From contig JBHLOY010000001.1 of assembly GCA_048939995.1 (NCBI GenBank), forward strand, positions 302,349 through 366,348: 64,000 nt of DNA, given 5' to 3'. Positions 37,388 to 52,258 of this stretch are shown in pieces. The translations under genes and the position numbers were made by a program. The stretch comes from Promethearchaeota archaeon. GTDB lineage: Archaea > Asgardarchaeota > Lokiarchaeia > Sigyniarchaeales > SOKP01. Positions within the stretch are counted from its first letter, which is position 1. Each line of letters opens with the position of its first letter. The notes beneath the pieces were generated by a model. That model saw nothing but the letters and a program-made list of their open reading frames with translations, was not told where the DNA came from and made no database searches.

Positions 37388-40300
37388 ATGGGATCCAATG
37401 AGAAGAAAAAATCTAGTGAGAGAATTGAACGTGCAACTACCTTTCTTACGAAACTTTGGTGGTTTTTTGCTTTTTTAATAGGAATTCCAGTAACTATTTC
37501 CACTATTAGTTTCTATATTTTCAACTTCATTATAAGAGATATTTATATCTCTATTGGACTTTCAGTGGTTGTCTATTTATTCGCCATTTTCATTTTTTAT
37601 AAAAGTTTTGACCAATACAGAAATAGTCCTTTCTTTCTTAATAATAAAAACAATTTTAGCGCCAGAATTCACACATTTTATATAATTAGTAGCCTTGCTT
37701 TAATAGTTACTCCTATATTTGTTTATATAACTCCTGAGGGATATTATTTTGAATTACTTCCTTTAATTTCTTATTGTATTTTATATAATATCATTTATTT
37801 TTATTATTTTTATAAGCCTATTGAAGATTATGATATCTCTGAATCAAGATTTAAAAGTGGAATAAGTTTTAAATCATCGTTGAAAGAGTTTCACAATGTA
37901 GTGGTTATATTAAATTACATAATTCATATTATTTTCTTAACCTATACCCATTACACGAGATTATCATGGCTATTTGCTTTAATATCAAATATTGTTTTCT
38001 ATATCTACACAATATTAACAACAAGAAATTTAAGGAAGAACTTTAGAATTGCTATTGACAAAGGGGAATCTATTCTTAACTATTTAATAAAATTTAAGAA
38101 AAAGTTCACAATATCGATTATTAGCCTGTGTTTTGTGCTCTTAATTCAATTACCATTTGATTTTTATCTAATAAATACCCTATCTGGTGCCATCTATACC
38201 TATTTTGATTATATTATGATCATATTCTATTCAATGATCTTCTTCTTTTTATACTTGAAACTACGGATATATGCCTCAATATATTACGAGAAGGAAGTCT
38301 TTAAATTATCTAATCAGGGAATGAATGAATCAAATGAAGATTCTTCAAGAATTTTAATGAAATATCAAAAATGGAATATGATAATATCTCTGTTTTTCAG
38401 TATTTTCGTGCTTTTATTTTCATTAGGGATCAATTTTCCGGTAATAATCATTATTTCCTTGCCAGCTATTATTATAGCAACGTATTATGAACAAAAGGCT
38501 AACTTTTGCCCAAAGAGATATAGTCGTTATATATTTTTATTCAATAGTATTATTATATTAAGTTCAATATTATTTTTAGGAGTTTTTTATCTCGAACTTC
38601 AAATAATTCTATTTCTCCTAAGTATCTATTTGGATTTACAAATTTTTTCTCATTATAAGTATTTTGATAAAAATAAAATCATTTTGACCCAACATTTAAT
38701 AGCTTTCATATGCTTCTTAGTAATTTCTCAATTATTTTATCCTTTCATTTCATTAATCTATTTAGGGTTAGCTATTGACCCTTTTTTGTTAAATCTTATA
38801 AATATCTTAATCTATATATTATTAGTAAGTTTAGCATTATTAGGTACCTTCTATTATTTATATTTCCGTTACTTTAGAAAAAGTAAATGGAAGAATTTTA
38901 GTCTAATTCTAAATATTGTTATCTTTTTAATCGAAATTCTTTCATTTGCTCTTATAAATTTATATAGTATTTTTTCTGTAGAATTTAATGTATATATTAA
39001 TTATGTTATAATAAGTGCTATTTTTCTACCAATAATTTTTGATTTGTTTATTGGGCTTAACTATCTCCTTGGAATCACATCTAAAAAAATTTCTTTGAAG
39101 GAATTATACTACTCATGTTGGATTTTAATTTTAACAATATTTAGTACCCTACTTTATTTTTCCCTAAATAATTACATGTTCCTAATAGCCGATTTATTAT
39201 ATCTCTCTATTTTTTCCCTGATTTTACTTAAATTTGGAGTGAAAATTGAGCAAGTAAATATTAAGATCTTCAAAAAAATTGTGAGTCTTAACTCAATTTT
39301 TATCCTTATAGAGCTTTATTGCTTAACATTCTCAATTATTTTTTCGAATCTTATTTTTTTAGAAATTTCACATAACCTTTTGCTTTCTTCTTATTTCTCA
39401 TTGGTTTCAATCGCAATTTTAATAAATATATTCCTAAGGAAGATTATTTCAATGGTAATAATAAAAATGATTAATTTGGTTAGTTTACTGTTTTCTACAG
39501 GAATAATTTTTTACAATTTATACGCTTATACTCTTGGATCTTATTTTGTTATTATTATTCCGATTTTATCTTCATGCCTTTTCTTTTATATTTTCATTTT
39601 TTATCTTAAATCATTAATACATGGGTTTTTACCAAAAAACCTTTTTTTAATAAATACAATAATCATATTCATCTCCTTATCTCTTATACCGTCATTCTAT
39701 GCATTAGAAAGCATTAAGTTAGGATTAACTGTTGATTTTGTTACAGTATTTAATTCAACCCTTTACATTATTCTTGGAATATTGTTTTTTATCACTGTTT
39801 TCTCGCCACAATTTAAAATTAGAGAAGGAAGGAAGCGATTTGTACTATTTACGCTGATTCTTCTTCTGTTCATTTTAGCGGGAACCACAGTTTTTTATTA
39901 TTCAAATCTATTTTTATATACTACTTTGTTTGGAGAAACAGTTCCTTTAATCGCAAGCTCAGCTTTTCTTTTCGTTCCTTTAATATTACTATATAAGTAT
40001 CAATTTATTAAAATTAAAACTAGTAAAATCCTTATCCTTTTAAACTATCTTTTTCTCTGGGGAGCGCTAATATCTATTCCAATTGTTTTTTGCTTAGAAT
40101 TTATAAGATTAGGTAATTTTATTCAAACTTATCTCATGGTAACATTATTAGTTGTAATATTTTATGGGTTTTTAAAATCTCTATCCCCCATATCACAATC
40201 GCTTGAATTTAGAGCATCTTTTGATTATAAAATACGAATAATGCAAATATGCATTTGGTTTTGTATTGCAGTCTTGATCTCATTAATTATTCCTTTTTTC

Positions 40301-43300
40301 TTTTTATTCCAACAATATTATTGGTTAAATCTATTTACAATAAGTTGTACACTAATTCTTTTTTTCATCCTGAATATAGCAAATCTACCTCAATTAGAGA
40401 GTTTCAAGCAAAAAGTCTTTGAAAACAAAAGAAGCAAATTAGATTTTTATAAAATTTACAAAATTTATGAATATTATAAAAATATTATTTATTTTGGACT
40501 AATTTTTTCAATATCTTTCTTTTTTTACTCAATCTTCCAAGCTTTCAATCTTGTTTATATAATTTTTCAATCAACTGATAGCTTATTAACGGGTTCTTTT
40601 AACCTAGTAATTTTTTTGATATTTACTTTATTACTCTTACATTTTACAAGTAAGATAATTAGATTAGAATTTGTTAAAACAAGAGATATAATTGAATTAA
40701 TAATTTGGTTAACTATAAAATTCAGTATTTTATTGTTCCTCTCTTTATTGCCCATTCAAATTTCAATTTCTAATAGAATTTTTCTAATAATCCTAGCGTT
40801 TGCTATTCAAAGCCCAATTACCATTAACTATCTCGATAAACATATGATGTTTTTAGAAAATACTAAGCTACTCATGAATAGAGTTATAGGATTTTTGTTT
40901 TTTGTAGCAGCTTTAGGGTTTATTATGGAAAATCTATGGAGTGTTAATATTAGTATATTATACTTTAATCAAAATATTCCAATTTTTATTGGCTTTCTTA
41001 TATGTTTAATTTTTACATTTTTTAATTATTACATTATACATTTTAATGAAATTATCCAAAAAGGAGGGAGATTTAGAATATACAGATTGTATCTAATCTC
41101 CTTTCTGTTATTAGTTCTATTTCTATTGATGAATATTCAATTTATTCTAATATTTTTATTTGGTGTTCTTGTTATACTTCTTCGAAACAAGAATAGAAAT
41201 TTTATATGGCATCTAATCAATTATTTCGTAATTAGTTTTCTTTGTTTAATTGAATTAAATCTTTTTATAATAAAATTTAATCTTCTTCCTTTTACTTATA
41301 TCCACCCAGGAATTTTTGCTTGGATATATTTTATATCCTTTATTTCTATTTTATTTATTTCAATTATTCTTAATTTTAAAAGAATCAATATTCTTGAGGA
41401 ATTATTATTGGATTTTTTAATTCCTTGTTTAATTTTTACCTCGATTTTAATTTTCTTTCCGATTCCTATTTTTTATAACATCACAATTTCTATTACTATT
41501 CTACTATTTTTAATAAGCTTATTCTTTTATCGCAAAAAAGATGACATATATATTTGGTTTATACGTCCATGCGCCTTATTATTTCTCTTTAACCTAATAA
41601 GTATTGGCTCTTATTTCATAATATTTAGTTTACCCATCTATCTTGAATACAATCTGATATTAAGTTCCACCCTAACTTTTAGTATTATAGGTTTTTGCTT
41701 TGCTTTATTTTATCATAATTTAGAAAAGAAATTTAAAAGTAAAGTAATATCAATTGTTCTCATCTTAAGTGTCATCAGTTCCTTTATATTTTCTTACCTA
41801 ATCATAGAAATATCATTTACATTAGCTTTTATTTTTCCATGGTTGATTGCTGGAAATATGGCTATCATCTTATTATATATCTCCATTGGAATTTATCAAT
41901 GGAAAATATCATGGGCAATTTGGAAATCAGGGTATTGGATTTGGATATTTGTTCCGATCGTTAATTATCTTTTAATCGCTCAATCATTCGCAGGAATTGA
42001 TGTTTATACAAATGCTCTAAATTTATTTGGTTTAAACATTTATGGTTCGTATTTAATAACGTTTGTCATTTGTTTATTATTATCATTACCCTTCTGGTAT
42101 ACATGGATTAAAGACCACTTTAATGTAGTTTTGTTTACGATTTGGGGTTTTAGTTTGTTTTTAATATTTTGGTTTAGTCAAAATGCTTTCTTTGGATTTG
42201 ATATATTAATTATTTTATCATTTCTGGGAATTGCTATAATATTCCTTATGCCAATTTTTTATAGATTAGGTTTTTGGAAAATTCTATCTATTCTTTGGCT
42301 AATATTCACTTCACTTCTAACCATTTTTATAACATTCATTTTTGTTGGAATTAATTTCCCTTTAAACCAGATTATTCCATTTGATTTAGTCGTGGTTGGA
42401 TTTCTTTTCATAGTATTTTCCTTTTTTCCAAATTTGAAAGCTATGAAATACATAATATTGATTACAGCTTACTCCGTAGCCATGATTGGTATTTTTTGGA
42501 TACTATATATCCTTATGGTTTCAATAACCTATAATATTCCTGTATCAATCAATATCTCTTTCATTATAATTGGTTTTAGTCTATTTAGTTCACGTATATT
42601 GAAATTAAATAAAAAATTATTCAATTTTCTAATTTCTACAATGTTAACTGTGAATTTTTCACTTTTAACATTCTTCACTTTTATCATGATCCCTCATTTT
42701 GAATTTTTCGCGTTATTTTTAGCTATAACTGTTTGTGGAGGATCTCTTCTTGTATTTAATCGATTTCGAATGTTTTCTCCGATTAAAATGATCATTCCTT
42801 TATCTATCTTATCTATGGGAATATCCTTAACATTCTCTACTTTAATCTATATTTTTCTACCAAATTCTTTTTTCCTTATATCTGCTGCGTTCATTTCGAT
42901 AATTTTATTGATTAATTATCCCGTTTTAAAATATATTCGCCACATTTTATGGTATTCTGTTCCTTTGCCTTTTTGTTTGTTTATTTTGCACTTTTTATCA
43001 TTACTAGGGCCGTTCCAATCAATATTTAATTTAACCTTGGTTGGATTGATTTTATATACCTCGATATTTCAAATACTTACGAATTTATTTTATGGTAAAG
43101 CCAGGAGTATAAATCTTTTAGCTTTTGTTTTAAATTCTACCTATATATCCCTATTTATTGCTATTCTCAGTCCCTTATTTATCGTCTATAAGATTCTTGA
43201 ATTTTTTATAATTTGGTCAATTTTGATTTTATTATGTATTAGATATATAGAGAAGGGGGGTCAAGAACTTCTCAAAAATAAGGCAATTACCATTTTACTT

Positions 43301-45868
43301 AAAATTAGTAGTTATATAGCATTATTCCTCTACCTTGAAATTTCTCTTCTAATTACAGGTATATTAAATGAATTTATAGTGCCTGAATTCACGAGTAGTG
43401 TTTTGATTTTTTTTGGAACCTTACTTTTATTATCATTACTAGATATTTTCCTTATTAAGAAAGTTAGTAGCAAGTTAGTTTATCCAATTAATGTGATTTG
43501 CTACATTTTAATTTCAATTTATTTATTTATATTTCTAAATCGCTTTTTAGCTATAGATATACAATTTATTTTCTTAAATCTAATCATATTATTGGCGATG
43601 CAATTTTATACCATAAAAATCATATTTTCTCTTCTAAATCAATTAGAACGTTATGATAGAGAGAAGTTAACCTCTTTACAAAAGATTTTTCAAACGATTT
43701 TACTTAATACTATATTCGTTGTTATTAGTTTATTTGGATCATCTTATTTCACATCAATATTCCTAAATGTTTCACCATTGCTTAGTGGATTCTCTGCTAT
43801 TTTCTTGTTTCTAATGATTTTTAGTTTTCTAATGTTTAATCTGAATCAGTTAGTAAAGATTAGGTTTAAGCTAAAGGTGTTATTTGTTTATTATCTAATA
43901 TTTATAGTAAGTTTTGTTTCATTTTTTACCTCTTATATTATGATTTTCAATCTTATTACTATCTTATATCTGAGTCTATTTTCTCTTATTATCACTAGTT
44001 TGTTATCTTACTTTATCTCCTTGCTAAACAAAATATATATAGAAAAATTAGGGACTGAGATGATAAAGAAAGTTTATTCATTTTTACAATTTATTCTTTA
44101 CTTAGAAATTTCATTGATTTTCTATAGTCAATTTTCCGTTTATTTCAATATATTCGAAAGTATATTAACGTCTCAAATAGTCCTAAGTTTAATTTCCTTA
44201 ATCGAATTAAAATTTATAAAAAAAGTAAAAGCCTCCTATGTTCTTCTTATTCACACGATTAGCTTTTTTAACATTAGTTGGGCTCTATACGTTATTATAT
44301 TTCAATTTACTTACAATTATTTTAATTTAAATATCATTTTCTTCATTTTAATGCAATTTTATACGAATCACCTATACTTTATTACTAAAGCTGAATTTAA
44401 TCCAACAAAAAAACCTAATTTTAAGAAATGGAAATTAATTAGACAAAAAATAATTGGATCTTGTTTCTACCTTGCTTTATTAGTATATATTGTGCAGTAT
44501 TTAATTCTATTTATTCCTGATATTCTGCTAGTAGTTTTAATCTCAAGTATATTACTTCATGGTTTAATGTATTTAGATAAATATGTGTCTAAATTTTTAG
44601 CTACCTGGTCAAAATATCTAATTATATTTTCTGGGATCTTAATTATAGGTGTTTCTATTTTGTATTCGTTGAATTGGATCTTAACTATTTCTATACAAAT
44701 CATTCCTATAACAATACTCATAGTTTTACTTGAAGTAACCTATTTGATAAGATTATTACATCTGTGGAATATTTTAAAAAGTGAGTTTGCTAAGAATCGA
44801 AATTACCTCATTATCTTATTCTATTTAGATATCATAACTTGGCCTCTTTTTTATTTAAACTTGCAAATTTATAATTTTCTGAATATCTTGTTGATATTTT
44901 TTATAATATTAATAATAATTTCTCTGATTGATATTCGGATAAAAGCCATTAAACCGAGTCTAAGAAGAACAATCTTTAAGGTTGGTTATACAATTTTTGA
45001 TATAATATTATCAATACAGATATATACGTTATTAGAATACATAATTCAACCAAACTTACCATTAAATCTTTCAATAGCAGGTCTAGTATTTATTATAGTA
45101 ATTGGTTTTTTAATAAAGCCTTTTAAAAAGCGTAGACTTATTTCATTCTTTTACTGGTTCTTTATATATCTATTCATTAGCCTTATCATTTTTTACGCCT
45201 ATTTGAATCTTTGGAGTTTTACAGTAGTTGTATTTGGAATACTATTATATCCGTTTATTTTCATGCTTGAGGAGTTGAGAGAATTATTTAATCATTTCTT
45301 AGATTATCTTCAGAAGCTTATAATCAAAATTAAATATATCATAATAGCTGGTTATAAAAAATTGATTAAATTCATTAAAGACAACTTCAAGATAGTCCGA
45401 ATTTTAATTTGTATAATCTTTGGAATAATGATGGGTTTTATCTTTTCTGAGTTTGTTTTAGTCATTTTAAATCTATATCACTCAATTCTGTTAGCAATAG
45501 CTTCTTTTGGGATTATTTATGCTTTTACTGACTATTTATGGTACTTTTTTTACGTCAAAAAGCTTGGAGATGTAAGACAAATATTCAGACAAAAGTTAAA
45601 GATATTTATAATTATTTGGATTAGCTTCTCCGTCTTTATATTTACATTAATACTACCCTATGTTGGTTCTGTCCTTTATTCATTATTTCTTATCTTAATA
45701 CCATTTTGGGGTTTAGGATCAATTTTAATCTGGGTGGTTAATCGAAAAGAGGCTAAACAAAAAATTTCGGTAAAAACTAGGTTCTTTATAACCTTGTCTA
45801 CAATAGTAATATTTGTTATTTGGGTAACAGTTATTCTAATTTGGTACTTTTTTGAAATTCGTGTTTAA
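37388..45868 (+). CDS. Giant polytopic membrane protein of unknown function
   Basis: 2826-aa uninterrupted ORF made almost wholly of hydrophobic segments with short Lys/Arg loops. Confidence 0.85.
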   Translation: MGSNEKKKSSERIERATTFLTKLWWFFAFLIGIPVTISTISFYIFNFIIRDIYISIGLSVVVYLFAIFIFYKSFDQYRNSPFFLNNKNNFSARIHTFYIISSLALIVTPIFVYITPEGYYFELLPLISYCILYNIIYFYYFYKPIEDYDISESRFKSGISFKSSLKEFHNVVVILNYIIHIIFLTYTHYTRLSWLFALISNIVFYIYTILTTRNLRKNFRIAIDKGESILNYLIKFKKKFTISIISLCFVLLIQLPFDFYLINTLSGAIYTYFDYIMIIFYSMIFFFLYLKLRIYASIYYEKEVFKLSNQGMNESNEDSSRILMKYQKWNMIISLFFSIFVLLFSLGINFPVIIIISLPAIIIATYYEQKANFCPKRYSRYIFLFNSIIILSSILFLGVFYLELQIILFLLSIYLDLQIFSHYKYFDKNKIILTQHLIAFICFLVISQLFYPFISLIYLGLAIDPFLLNLINILIYILLVSLALLGTFYYLYFRYFRKSKWKNFSLILNIVIFLIEILSFALINLYSIFSVEFNVYINYVIISAIFLPIIFDLFIGLNYLLGITSKKISLKELYYSCWILILTIFSTLLYFSLNNYMFLIADLLYLSIFSLILLKFGVKIEQVNIKIFKKIVSLNSIFILIELYCLTFSIIFSNLIFLEISHNLLLSSYFSLVSIAILINIFLRKIISMVIIKMINLVSLLFSTGIIFYNLYAYTLGSYFVIIIPILSSCLFFYIFIFYLKSLIHGFLPKNLFLINTIIIFISLSLIPSFYALESIKLGLTVDFVTVFNSTLYIILGILFFITVFSPQFKIREGRKRFVLFTLILLLFILAGTTVFYYSNLFLYTTLFGETVPLIASSAFLFVPLILLYKYQFIKIKTSKILILLNYLFLWGALISIPIVFCLEFIRLGNFIQTYLMVTLLVVIFYGFLKSLSPISQSLEFRASFDYKIRIMQICIWFCIAVLISLIIPFFFLFQQYYWLNLFTISCTLILFFILNIANLPQLESFKQKVFENKRSKLDFYKIYKIYEYYKNIIYFGLIFSISFFFYSIFQAFNLVYIIFQSTDSLLTGSFNLVIFLIFTLLLLHFTSKIIRLEFVKTRDIIELIIWLTIKFSILLFLSLLPIQISISNRIFLIILAFAIQSPITINYLDKHMMFLENTKLLMNRVIGFLFFVAALGFIMENLWSVNISILYFNQNIPIFIGFLICLIFTFFNYYIIHFNEIIQKGGRFRIYRLYLISFLLLVLFLLMNIQFILIFLFGVLVILLRNKNRNFIWHLINYFVISFLCLIELNLFIIKFNLLPFTYIHPGIFAWIYFISFISILFISIILNFKRINILEELLLDFLIPCLIFTSILIFFPIPIFYNITISITILLFLISLFFYRKKDDIYIWFIRPCALLFLFNLISIGSYFIIFSLPIYLEYNLILSSTLTFSIIGFCFALFYHNLEKKFKSKVISIVLILSVISSFIFSYLIIEISFTLAFIFPWLIAGNMAIILLYISIGIYQWKISWAIWKSGYWIWIFVPIVNYLLIAQSFAGIDVYTNALNLFGLNIYGSYLITFVICLLLSLPFWYTWIKDHFNVVLFTIWGFSLFLIFWFSQNAFFGFDILIILSFLGIAIIFLMPIFYRLGFWKILSILWLIFTSLLTIFITFIFVGINFPLNQIIPFDLVVVGFLFIVFSFFPNLKAMKYIILITAYSVAMIGIFWILYILMVSITYNIPVSINISFIIIGFSLFSSRILKLNKKLFNFLISTMLTVNFSLLTFFTFIMIPHFEFFALFLAITVCGGSLLVFNRFRMFSPIKMIIPLSILSMGISLTFSTLIYIFLPNSFFLISAAFISIILLINYPVLKYIRHILWYSVPLPFCLFILHFLSLLGPFQSIFNLTLVGLILYTSIFQILTNLFYGKARSINLLAFVLNSTYISLFIAILSPLFIVYKILEFFIIWSILILLCIRYIEKGGQELLKNKAITILLKISSYIALFLYLEISLLITGILNEFIVPEFTSSVLIFFGTLLLLSLLDIFLIKKVSSKLVYPINVICYILISIYLFIFLNRFLAIDIQFIFLNLIILLAMQFYTIKIIFSLLNQLERYDREKLTSLQKIFQTILLNTIFVVISLFGSSYFTSIFLNVSPLLSGFSAIFLFLMIFSFLMFNLNQLVKIRFKLKVLFVYYLIFIVSFVSFFTSYIMIFNLITILYLSLFSLIITSLLSYFISLLNKIYIEKLGTEMIKKVYSFLQFILYLEISLIFYSQFSVYFNIFESILTSQIVLSLISLIELKFIKKVKASYVLLIHTISFFNISWALYVIIFQFTYNYFNLNIIFFILMQFYTNHLYFITKAEFNPTKKPNFKKWKLIRQKIIGSCFYLALLVYIVQYLILFIPDILLVVLISSILLHGLMYLDKYVSKFLATWSKYLIIFSGILIIGVSILYSLNWILTISIQIIPITILIVLLEVTYLIRLLHLWNILKSEFAKNRNYLIILFYLDIITWPLFYLNLQIYNFLNILLIFFIILIIISLIDIRIKAIKPSLRRTIFKVGYTIFDIILSIQIYTLLEYIIQPNLPLNLSIAGLVFIIVIGFLIKPFKKRRLISFFYWFFIYLFISLIIFYAYLNLWSFTVVVFGILLYPFIFMLEELRELFNHFLDYLQKLIIKIKYIIIAGYKKLIKFIKDNFKIVRILICIIFGIMMGFIFSEFVLVILNLYHSILLAIASFGIIYAFTDYLWYFFYVKKLGDVRQIFRQKLKIFIIIWISFSVFIFTLILPYVGSVLYSLFLILIPFWGLGSILIWVVNRKEAKQKISVKTRFFITLSTIVIFVIWVTVILIWYFFEIRV

Positions 45869-47810: not shown

Positions 47811-47970
47811 TTTTATAATTATTACTCTCTGGCTATCTAATTATTATGTGACACAATTAAAAAGTAATTTCTAAAATATATTGGTTATTTATGGTGTTAA
47901 ATACACTTCTCAAATAACACAAAAACAATTAAAATTGAAAAATAATAAAAATTTAATGAGGTGATATTTT

Positions 47971-48102
47971 TTGGCTCAATGTAAAGATTGTAAATTTTAT
48001 AAACCAATAAATGATACTAAAGGAGACTGTTTTGGTCATGAGGTTCCTGCGACACTTGATACAAATAATTGCCCTACAAATAGTTTTCAACCAAGAGACT
48101 AG
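47971..48102 (+). CDS. 43-aa 4-Cys microprotein, BssC/HiPIP-like (not in ORF track)
   Basis: GAGGTGA SD (47958-47964) then TTG: MAQCKDCKFYKPINDTKGDCFGHEVPATLDTNNCPTNSFQPRD. Confidence 0.75.
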   Translation: MAQCKDCKFYKPINDTKGDCFGHEVPATLDTNNCPTNSFQPRD

Positions 48103-48739: not shown

Positions 48740-48869
48740 ATTTTCTTCTAAATTTATCTTATTTTTATTTTTGCAAAATTTTAAACTTCAATTTTACTAT
48801 TAACTTAAGAAAATAAGAATAGACTCAATTTTTATATGAAATGAGTTCATGAGAGAGAATTTTAAAAGG

Positions 48870-49254
48870 TGAAAAGGTTTCGAGAAGCTGCAATGACTAT
48901 CAAAAGGTTTTCCGGACAGCCAAAAGATTATCATTGCGTAGTAATGCTTCCGTTCCTAGGTCTGGAAATCTCTATGCATGATCGATTTATTAAGTTATGT
49001 TGCGTTATGAAAAGAATCTTCATTCATAAGCATAATTGCTTATACCTGTGAACGTTCTTATCGTTTGATAATTTTACCAATTCGTTAGAATCGGCAAGAT
49101 TGAACGTCAAATACAAACTGGAAAGCTTGCATCTTAAGTCCTGATTATGCTTTTTACACACAACCTCTTTTCATATTGCTATTAACTTTTTTTAGTACCA
49201 ATGCATTGAGGTTACATTACTGCTTCTCGATGTTCACAGCATTTGATATGAACA
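48870..49254 (-). ncRNA. Candidate novel large structured ncRNA (~385 nt)
   Basis: 16-nt end-to-end helix (49230-49215 with 48895-48880), many internal stems with minus-strand G-U pairs, upstream TATA-like TTTAAATA (49283-49276), pyrimidine-rich 3' tail. Confidence 0.6.
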
Positions 49255-49380
49255 AGTATTAGTGTGATAAATTTATATTTAAATAAATCTATTAAGGGGT
49301 TATTAGTTTACCAACTATATTTGGAAAAATAGGTTTTTTAGTCGACTTATCATTCATAGTTAACATTTTCATTAAAATTT

Positions 49381-51783
49381 TTAACCAATAAAACAAGATA
49401 AATCTCTTTGAGAAGATTTTTTCCAGTAATCTCGTTTGAGCACTTCTTCAAGTTCAGGAAATTCGAACGGAAATATATTTTCGAAGGCTCTTTTTAATAG
49501 TTCAATATATTTTTTCTTATCGTAGTGATGTATCCGTTTATTATAAAGATCAGAGATAATAACCTTTCGATCGGGAAAATCTGGGTCGGCATTGGCATTA
49601 AGAATTATATACTTTACATTCTTTCCAGGTGTTACTATAGAACCAGATTCTTCCAATTGTCTAGCAGCAATAGCCTGATATGAATTCACTTTATAAGCTG
49701 AGGGTTTGCGAGATATTCGTTGGCGAATTGTGAGGTCTTGTGTTGATAGCTTTCCTGAATAAATTTTATCAGCAAATTCATGAAATTTCGTTTTTGCCAA
49801 TGGAATTCTTTTTATAAATTCATTAATAGTTTTTGCACCTTGGAAAATGTCAATAAAGGCATACTGGGCTTCTTTCACGATCGTAGGCACATCTCTACGT
49901 CGTACTTCAATACCCCGAACTTTAACTTCGCCATTGCTCTTTATGCCCCAATAATGACTAAGAGCTGGAACTCCTGGCTCAGCTTTTGAAGGGAGAAATA
50001 CAATTATACTATATCTACCTTCCCAACTCATTGGAACATTTGTATGTTCTGAGATTCTATCAGCAATTTCCTTTGATATCTTCTCGAATTCTTCTGCTGT
50101 TCTTCCCCTTGTATCTTGAAGCCAGATGGAATCAACAATGCCATGAACGATTTTACAGTCATACTCTTCAGCAATCTCGACTGCTCGCATAAGAAATTCA
50201 CGTGCAAATGCACATACCGTTTGATGAGCTTCGATTTTACCAAAACGTGCGTTTTTAAACCCTAAGTATCCAAAACTTACGACAAGAACCCATTTTAAGG
50301 CAATATCAGTGAACTTATAACGAACATTTCCTGTCTTTCGTACATACTCTTTATATTTTAATCTTTTAGACAAGGGAAGCTTTATCGACTTTGCGATAAT
50401 TCCTTCTCTTTTTGAGCAGATATGGAAATCCAACCCCGGTACCTTTATGCCTGTTCCATCATCCTTACAACATTTGCAGTTGAGAGTTTCAGAGGAAATA
50501 TTATAATTTGCCATTACGGAAGGATACATAGAAGAGAAATCTAGTTCAACAATATTGTCAAAGACACCAATCATCGGTTCGAAGATGTGTCCTCCCCGAT
50601 CACTTCTTATTAAGTCCATTGCTGAATTAAATCCTTCAGGACTCTTTTTAAATGGGGCAATTAAGTGATCAAGTTTATACGCATTGTAATACTGGATGGA
50701 CTGGAGCGCTCCTCCAATTGTTATTCGAGAAAGTCGTTGTAAGGACACTCGTGAAATACGGGCAACTTCAATAACGCCAGGAATATTACCTTCGGTGAAA
50801 TGAAGGCTGGCATAGGATGCAGTATCTAAATGAAACCTGCCTGTAAAATATACTTGCGTCTTCGAACGATGGAATATAATGCCATATGACATATAATGGC
50901 TTGATCCTCCTGAGAGATTAAAAAGGCTCTTCTCTAGTGGAGTTTTATCTCGAGAGAAATAAAGCTTTCTTGATATGCCATTTACAGAAGCTCGAGCAGC
51001 TAAATATGGAAACATGAACTCATCCCCATTTTGTGTGAGAATTATATCAGGATCAAGCCTCTCAATGGCTTTGCTTAAATTTTCCAACTTTTCTGATTCA
51101 CTACCTTGATCTATTAAGTATGTTTTCTTTTTGTATCCATCTGCCCGAGGAACATTATTCTCATCATTTTCAACAATGCTAATTTGTATAGAATCAAGTG
51201 GATCGTTATAGTATGGTCTTATTCCTTCATATTGAACCTTAATGTCAATCCATACAGCTTTTAGGGGAGGTAAATCATAAAATAGTTTTTCGTTGTTATC
51301 TTTCAATTCTAAAGAAACAAGCTTAGTTAAATAACCCCTTTTATTTCTGGTTCTCTTTATCTTAAAATGACAAAAAGACATTGGAAATAAATCGTTAACG
51401 TAGAAATACATTTGAGCAATAGGCAAATCTGTATTGTATAAGGTAAAGAGATCGATTTCATCAATTTCCTGAATAGTTTTCTTAAATAACGACGGTTTTT
51501 TCACTGATACGCCTAAGACTTGAGTTTTGTTTTGGTCTTCTAATTTCACATATTTGTCACATATTCTCACTTTTTTGACGTTATGATTTTGTTGAATGAT
51601 ATGCTTTAATCTTTCAAGGTCATTTCCAGCACTTGCTTCTGGTACTGCAAAGAACTCAGGGCAAAAATCATGATATAGCTTTATAACCTTCTGCTCTTTA
51701 AAGGGTTTTACCCAGAGAATGACCCCCTCGCTAAACGTTGAAACATCTAAAAGCCAGCCATCAAAAATCTTTTCCAAAATCAA
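49381..51783 (-). CDS. polB2: Family B DNA polymerase, PolB2 group (altered motif C)
   Basis: LDFSSMYPS, ALKWVLVVSFGYLG, HGIVDS instead of YGDTDS, VRGIEVRRRD; degenerate exonuclease motifs. Confidence 0.92.
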   Translation of the reverse strand: MILEKIFDGWLLDVSTFSEGVILWVKPFKEQKVIKLYHDFCPEFFAVPEASAGNDLERLKHIIQQNHNVKKVRICDKYVKLEDQNKTQVLGVSVKKPSLFKKTIQEIDEIDLFTLYNTDLPIAQMYFYVNDLFPMSFCHFKIKRTRNKRGYLTKLVSLELKDNNEKLFYDLPPLKAVWIDIKVQYEGIRPYYNDPLDSIQISIVENDENNVPRADGYKKKTYLIDQGSESEKLENLSKAIERLDPDIILTQNGDEFMFPYLAARASVNGISRKLYFSRDKTPLEKSLFNLSGGSSHYMSYGIIFHRSKTQVYFTGRFHLDTASYASLHFTEGNIPGVIEVARISRVSLQRLSRITIGGALQSIQYYNAYKLDHLIAPFKKSPEGFNSAMDLIRSDRGGHIFEPMIGVFDNIVELDFSSMYPSVMANYNISSETLNCKCCKDDGTGIKVPGLDFHICSKREGIIAKSIKLPLSKRLKYKEYVRKTGNVRYKFTDIALKWVLVVSFGYLGFKNARFGKIEAHQTVCAFAREFLMRAVEIAEEYDCKIVHGIVDSIWLQDTRGRTAEEFEKISKEIADRISEHTNVPMSWEGRYSIIVFLPSKAEPGVPALSHYWGIKSNGEVKVRGIEVRRRDVPTIVKEAQYAFIDIFQGAKTINEFIKRIPLAKTKFHEFADKIYSGKLSTQDLTIRQRISRKPSAYKVNSYQAIAARQLEESGSIVTPGKNVKYIILNANADPDFPDRKVIISDLYNKRIHHYDKKKYIELLKRAFENIFPFEFPELEEVLKRDYWKKSSQRDLSCFIG

Positions 51784-52058: not shown

Positions 52059-52258
52059 CTTTTCAAACCAAAACTTGTTTTTAAATCCTTAGAAGGGAAG
52101 TAATTCGGATAATTAAAAAGAAGATACTAAAAGTATTTACTGATTTTTTACACAACTGTTAAAATGAGAAGAATTAAACCATATATAGATCTTTAACTTT
52201 CTAAGATCTATAATCTTCTTGATTTGTAAAAATTTTAAACGAAGAGAAATAAATTAAT

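Follow-up and report, generated by a model that had tools for sequence, protein, structure and literature searches.

A modular structured RNA of a new class encoded in three genera of one Lokiarchaeia family

A stand-alone structured RNA gene of 374 nt was found on the minus strand at positions 49253-48880 of the window (the whole stretch of 64,000 nucleotides of Promethearchaeota archaeon DNA that was analyzed), and its homologs almost certainly constitute a real structured RNA family. Because no known family matches it, the family is regarded as a new RNA class; newness is claimed for the class and not for the function. Large structured RNAs of unknown function are mostly bacterial and phage-borne, and no description of one in Asgard archaea was found in a literature search of incomplete coverage. 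These results support the sequence-only reading of the window, which had proposed an independent, undescribed Asgard structured RNA gene on this strand. The window copy belongs to subtype B, and the features of the locus are as follows:

49334..49344, minus: CGAC-(W)(W)AAA box, single copy in the window, at -91
49289..49305, minus: TAATAA-N4-TTAATAG element, conserved, at the BRE position ahead of the TATA box
49276..49283, minus: TATA box TTTAAATA, near-invariant in the family, at about -30
48880..49253, minus: RNA gene body, subtype B, 374 nt
49232..49253, minus: P0, hairpin at the 5' end, longer in one clade and absent from two copies
49223..49230, minus: P1 5' strand with invariant GAGAAG, partner 48887-48880
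49215..49221, minus: P2 5' strand, partner 48946-48940
49201..49210, minus: P3 5' strand, partner 48979-48970, with the variable module inside
48980..49200, minus: variable interior, module B
49165-49143, about 49140-49102 and 49097-49074, minus: module B hairpins b1, b2 and b3
49071-49058 and about 49056-49017, minus: module B hairpins b4 and b5
48953..48967, minus: P4 hairpin, sequence free but position kept; one homolog lacks it
48890..48937, minus: P5 hairpin, about 20 nt longer in the window's clade
48880..48887, minus: P1 3' strand CUUCUCGA
48864..48877, minus: U/C-rich tract, likely the archaeal terminator and 3' tail
49381..51783, minus: neighbor outside the RNA, PolB2-type family B polymerase, 800 aa
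48116..48739, plus: convergent neighbor, GyrI-like protein, 207 aa

The folding energy of the RNA region was -116.7 kcal/mol on the minus strand (z -8.2), and none of 100 shuffles was as good, whereas the plus strand folded less well (z -4.0). Folding beyond chance, for which a comparison with dinucleotide shuffles had been suggested, was thus confirmed on the minus strand. The sense strand also folded better than the antisense strand in nine of ten homologs tested, the remaining one being a tie. In the folded molecule, P1, P2 and P5 form a three-way junction, and module B is closed by a stem (49173-49167/49014-49008) that contains a multiloop with five hairpins, most of whose loops are GNRA or NAAC throughout the family. 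Judging from the TATA spacing and the family alignment, the 5' start would be at G49253; the 3' end of the mature RNA probably lies within the U-tract, in line with U-tract termination in archaea (PMC8716108). The TATA-like TTTAAATA previously noticed about 22 nt before the first hairpin was located at 49283-49276, 22 nt ahead of G49253, and the U/C tracts expected after the closing helix were found at 48877-48864. No ORF was kept family-wide, in agreement with the earlier impression that the region holds no convincing ORF; an antisense ORF of 43 aa is shared by some B copies and is absent from the window clade and from subtype A. Additionally, a local hairpin of the GAGGUA/UACCUC type, mutually exclusive with P1-P3 and weak in the window copy, was observed at 49228-49208 (minus) and is a candidate folding intermediate or switch.

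The promoter was conserved whatever the genomic site of the gene. In the family promoters TTAATAG is placed at -43 and TAATAA at -53, and most homologs carry two CGAC boxes, at -95/-96 (45 of 53) and -65/-66 (38 of 53). This box is likely a regulator site. No other convincing promoter with CGAC boxes was detected in the own genome, and a shared regulon was consequently rejected. Regarding transcription, words of the stretch were present in 20 runs recorded as RNA, and contigs from four independent metatranscriptome studies mapped inside 48888-49224 of the RNA body, among them one of 231 nt at 99%+ identity and a 159-nt adapter-flanked piece. Given that these contigs are unstranded, that the runs were picked by this very stretch and that RNA libraries may contain DNA, they give a weak hint that the RNA is transcribed. 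The flanking genes had no cover in the RNA runs, an absence that was disregarded for ranking expression.

True copies were identified in 58 of the 154 genomes of the order by BLAST, pattern and covariance-model searches after the removal of chance matches. All of the carriers belong to three genera of a single Promethearchaeota (Lokiarchaeia) family: the own genome and 19 of 41 others in its genus, 37 of 54 in the sister genus, and one of six in the third. One copy per genome was the rule and two the maximum, the own genome having a single one according to both BLAST and the family profile. Metagenomes yielded 23 further pattern matches, 17 of them full length. Several 99-100% complete genomes of the two main genera gave no match, and the gene is therefore dispensable. 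Within their limited reach, the searches gave no credible copy outside the family, be it in the families examined elsewhere in the order, class and phylum, among other genomes, or among collections of viruses, phages and plasmids; the covariance-model searches scored about 50 candidates per genome, so the absence from other genera is soft. Several candidates for a wider range were discarded. None of the 50 short-pattern matches in viral contigs bore the ends of the family, three bacterial pattern matches (among 185,579 genomes) and the match in genome G122 were due to chance, and the Hodarchaeota or Thorarchaeota submitter labels on some matches did not widen the range. A weak model match in another Asgard family (L290, 26.6 bits) consisted of a single hairpin, and its relatives lacked the frame. 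Two unusual arrangements were also seen: a 5' RNA fragment without promoter or 3' end on the minus strand of L063 at about 2950 (G113:C123), likely a decayed second copy, and two complete tandem genes behind PolB2, each with its own promoter, at L054:1464-2263.

All of the copies share one frame, composed of the P1 closing helix (GAGAAG/CUUCUC), the 3' U/C tract and P0 (missing in two copies). P1, P2 and the 3' hairpin P5 meet in one junction, P2, P3 and P4 in the next, and P3 encloses the variable part; nearly every copy also has the three-way junction and a TATA promoter with CGAC boxes. The family spans about 230-735 nt, and the frame is retained over lengths of 251-735 nt in four architectures, a modular variation that is invisible from the window sequence alone. 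Subtype A (about 230-290 nt) contains a multiloop of three or four hairpins, mostly UUCG-capped, and in subtype B (324-374 nt) the stem is longer and the hairpins, five in number, end in GNRA or NAAC loops. A form of 656-659 nt nests A, an extra domain and B within one frame, and a form of 728-735 nt chains three related units behind one promoter. Three-unit forms of this and greater length were recorded at L075:3061-3793, L061, L071, L074, L076, L077 and L181; in them the 3' strand of the last unit is able to pair with P1 of the first, and alternative folds or processing into units are possible.

The homologs and their covariation bore out the proposed structured RNA. In 33 aligned B copies, 90.1% of 4210 cells were paired as compared with 36-43% in slid controls, and 49 of 131 pairs showed two-sided changes as compared with 31 in shuffles, figures that are strong without amounting to a formal test; the controls overstate the covariation, as the B sequences are related and the alignment also supplied the structure. 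Many one-sided changes led to G-U pairs, as expected for RNA. Subtype A covaried independently (two-sided changes in 27 of 66 pairs), and a model built from it recovered the B copy of the window at E 1.4e-9. The invariant bases lie in paired positions of P0, P1 and P2, plus one junction A. The b5 loop was GNRA in 27 of the 33 copies and the b3 loop in 20, with UAAC at b3 in another seven.

Every stem listed in the sequence-only reading was found as sequence in the region, and the fold that it had assembled from them was partly upheld. With support expressed as the percentage of cells paired in the 26 copies outside the window's clade, the 5' hairpin (98), the outer 8 bp of the closing helix (90), the UUAUC stem (99), the AGAUGCAAGC stem (86) and the UUGCCGAUUC stem (85) stood. 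Four inner helices did not: UAACCUC/GAGGUUG (69), AAGCAUAAU/AUUAUGCUU (67), GACGUUC/GAACGUU (63) and AUGAAGA/UUUUCAU (53). The closing helix had been drawn with 16 bp, of which the inner 6 bp reached 75%; their 5' strand pairs better with 48946-48940 (P2, 98%). These four helices, together with the inner 6 bp, are alternative pairings of the window copy's sequence alone, and the GCUGUC/GAUAGU stem is an extension restricted to the window's clade.

The Rfam 15 covariance models gave no match to the window RNA at E<=10 and none to five other subtypes at E<=5, as anticipated for a novel RNA. The exclusion of SRP RNA, RNase P RNA, tmRNA and introns was likewise sustained. The single SRP gene of the genome is at C13:51784-52104 (70.9 bits), with no match on the RNA, the RNase P RNA gene is at C7:131556-131880 (126.5 bits), and a 5S rRNA with expansions was rejected on account of a permuted 5S gene on C37; as all three are encoded elsewhere, the RNA is not a missing housekeeping RNA. 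A retron msr-msd was rejected, there being no RT among the neighbors or in the own genome, and so was a Y RNA, the Ro60/TROVE gene being present in none of five carriers while the control was positive in two genomes. The search for the major vault protein gave no match, yet neither did its control. An OMEGA or bridge guide RNA was also dismissed: the window has no nuclease or recombinase neighbor, no neighbor is constant, and the RNA is flanked by the promoter and the U-tract, with no variable single-stranded guide segment.

As regards function, the best explanation, held with middling confidence by analogy with OLE or raiA, is that a stable and dispensable non-coding RNA, encoded by the host and transcribed independently, would serve as an accessory RNP scaffold or sequester proteins. 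An upstream factor would switch the gene on from two CGAC boxes, the transcript would begin at G49253 and end in the U-tract, and a host RNA-binding protein would read the sequence-invariant base of the molecule, while the hairpin arms capped by GNRA, NAAC or UUCG loops may pack together to offer an additional binding surface of variable extent. Sequence invariance in a helix suggests that a partner recognizes it, and a fixed base below an interior that can be replaced, nested or tripled would fit such a scaffold or sequestering RNA. Conserved unpaired bases or a programmable stretch, which one would look for in a catalytic core or a guide, are not seen, and the absence of the RNA from many complete genomes makes its role conditional. 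Against the scaffold reading, no partner protein and no constant neighbor gene were found, the invariant paired bases could be explained by tertiary contacts without any protein, and a patchy distribution would be equally expected of a selfish passenger and of a conditional helper.

The raiA motif RNA, a stand-alone structured RNA of unknown function, has a conserved closing P1 and a variable periphery and binds a KH protein (PMC12968392). The Lokiarchaeia RNA resembles it in having subtypes with differing stem number and a strongly conserved closing P1 (PMC12968392), but raiA is bacterial and has a two-pseudoknot core, whereas the present RNA has no Rfam match and no pseudoknot signal. It is also similar to OLE, GOLLD and ROOL, large multi-branched orphan RNAs of which GOLLD combines a conserved and a variable region; these are bacterial or phage-borne, and GOLLD and ROOL lie near tRNA islands and have kissing loops (PMC12286853). 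By contrast, the Lokiarchaeia RNA is encoded on an archaeal chromosome, viral collections yielded no copy of it, and no sequence or model match was seen. With archaeal SRP and RNase P RNA it shares a size of about 300-370 nt, a 5'/3' closing helix and an own promoter, but it lacks helix-8 and P4 signatures and is dispensable. The Y RNA/Ro60 and vault RNA design comprises a conserved closing stem, a variable interior and a 3' U tail, and the Lokiarchaeia RNA follows it at a much larger size. The U6 snRNA has a 5' hairpin, a GAGAAG word soon after it and a 3' U tract. All three occur here, but GAGAAG is locked in P1 and no ACAGAGA box, AGC triad, internal stem-loop or Rfam match was present, so this resemblance is treated as coincidence. 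The short, long, nested and tripled forms mark the functional core of the RNA and are ready targets for cryo-EM, and its partner would reveal whether scaffold RNAs like those of eukaryotes operate in Asgard cells. The reach is limited to three genera, in which the RNA is dispensable, and searches of other Asgard groups did not yield it. A bolder proposal, doubtful although conceivable, is that this is the first large ornate Asgard RNA class, in which a unit of about 250 nt, nested or chained so that each transcript holds one to three, may assemble into a higher-order particle, of RNA alone or RNP, whose biochemical role would be new.

An assembly of RNA only, in which monomers joined by tetraloop and A-minor contacts would form a dimer or cage like those of GOLLD, ROOL and OLE (PMC12286853), is unlikely. 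The conserved GNRA loops, the A-rich linkers and the existence of nested and tandem three-unit forms, which would then be covalent multimers, speak for it. However, no kissing-loop or pseudoknot covariation was seen in a mutual-information scan (low depth, Neff about 20; phylogeny-dominated), the arms of subtype A are mostly UUCG-capped, and threefold differences in the size of the interior fit a fixed cage poorly.

The genomic sites bear on another explanation, that the RNA is a mobile cassette, selfish or non-autonomous like a MITE or SINE, with insertion points behind genes. Subtypes A and B and the tripled form are represented among the 22 of 52 loci at which the distance from the PolB2 stop to the RNA start is 105-243 nt; the remaining loci represent five or more other sites, for instance between Hsp20 and thioredoxin reductase-like genes. 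No neighbor gene is constant across loci and the downstream gene is usually convergent. A cassette of about 500 nt is cleanly present or absent behind PolB2, and in many RNA-free PolB2 loci 10-30 nt separate the PolB2 stop from the convergent gene that follows. The PolB2 tree implies at least 5 gains or losses of the RNA, a count that is somewhat too high in that L181 was scored empty by pattern although it bears the RNA. Together with the total of at least six sites and the occasional second copies, this favors mobility. Nevertheless, a mobile cassette is improbable. One copy per genome is normal, and 19 loci displayed only short A/T-rich chance repeats, with neither target-site duplications nor terminal or outer inverted repeats, so a MITE or SINE was rejected here as well. 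The upstream promoter moves along with the gene, which retroposition would not copy, and no RT match was found in the own genome or in three of four other carriers. Furthermore, the subtypes follow the PolB2 clades, as under vertical descent, with the filled sites spread over the PolB2 tree, and phage, plasmid and viral collections contained none. Most simply, these sites would reflect a long-standing location behind PolB2 from which the gene was lost repeatedly and moved a few times.

A trans-acting regulator or decoy, in which the local GAGGUA/UACCUC hairpin would alternate with P1-P3 as a conformational switch, has a comparably low probability. The alternative hairpin beat shuffles in 24 of 39 distinct 5' segments and the upstream promoter boxes are conserved, but about one third of the copies lack this hairpin, the own genome has no antisense match beyond chance, and the usually convergent downstream gene is not constant.

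A new ribozyme, one of the options raised at the outset, is even harder to credit: despite the size, complexity, GNRA loops and conserved three-way junction, the invariant bases are almost all paired, the entire interior can be exchanged, no Rfam ribozyme matched, and there is no sign of scars or of insertion into a host gene.

Finally, it is very improbable that the RNA serves the PolB2-PPB2-iRadA damage polymerase as guide or template, as suggested earlier for PolB2, or as primer. Copies placed directly behind PolB2 span several subtypes and both main genera, and this site is probably ancestral, but over half of the copies are elsewhere, PolB2 was detected in 110 of the 134 genomes of the family with the site mostly empty, five carriers that are 92-100% complete have no PolB2 match (assembly gaps being possible), the promoter differs from the motif of the PolB2 operon, and no variable single-stranded guide segment exists. 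The link to PolB2, already described as positional, is one of synteny and not of dependence.

A separate motif, AAAAATYAG...GTATYTTTYTTTAAA, was conserved upstream of the small gene that precedes PolB2 (window about 52110-52145, minus; L065 and L071-L078) and is a candidate damage-response promoter. The 5S rRNA gene at G000:C37, about 49400-49560 (L030), was circularly permuted, as were those of L081, L082 and L084: the 3' half, a capped linker and the 5' half follow one another between pairing flanks, with Rfam scores of merely 18-28 bits, and re-ordering gave a 115-nt 5S-like sequence. Moreover, the window contains a 2826-aa ORF with no Pfam match at 37388-45868 (plus) and, at about 47970-48101 (plus), just before the GyrI-like gene, a small Cys-rich ORF with a strong ribosome-binding site that also occurs in L011.
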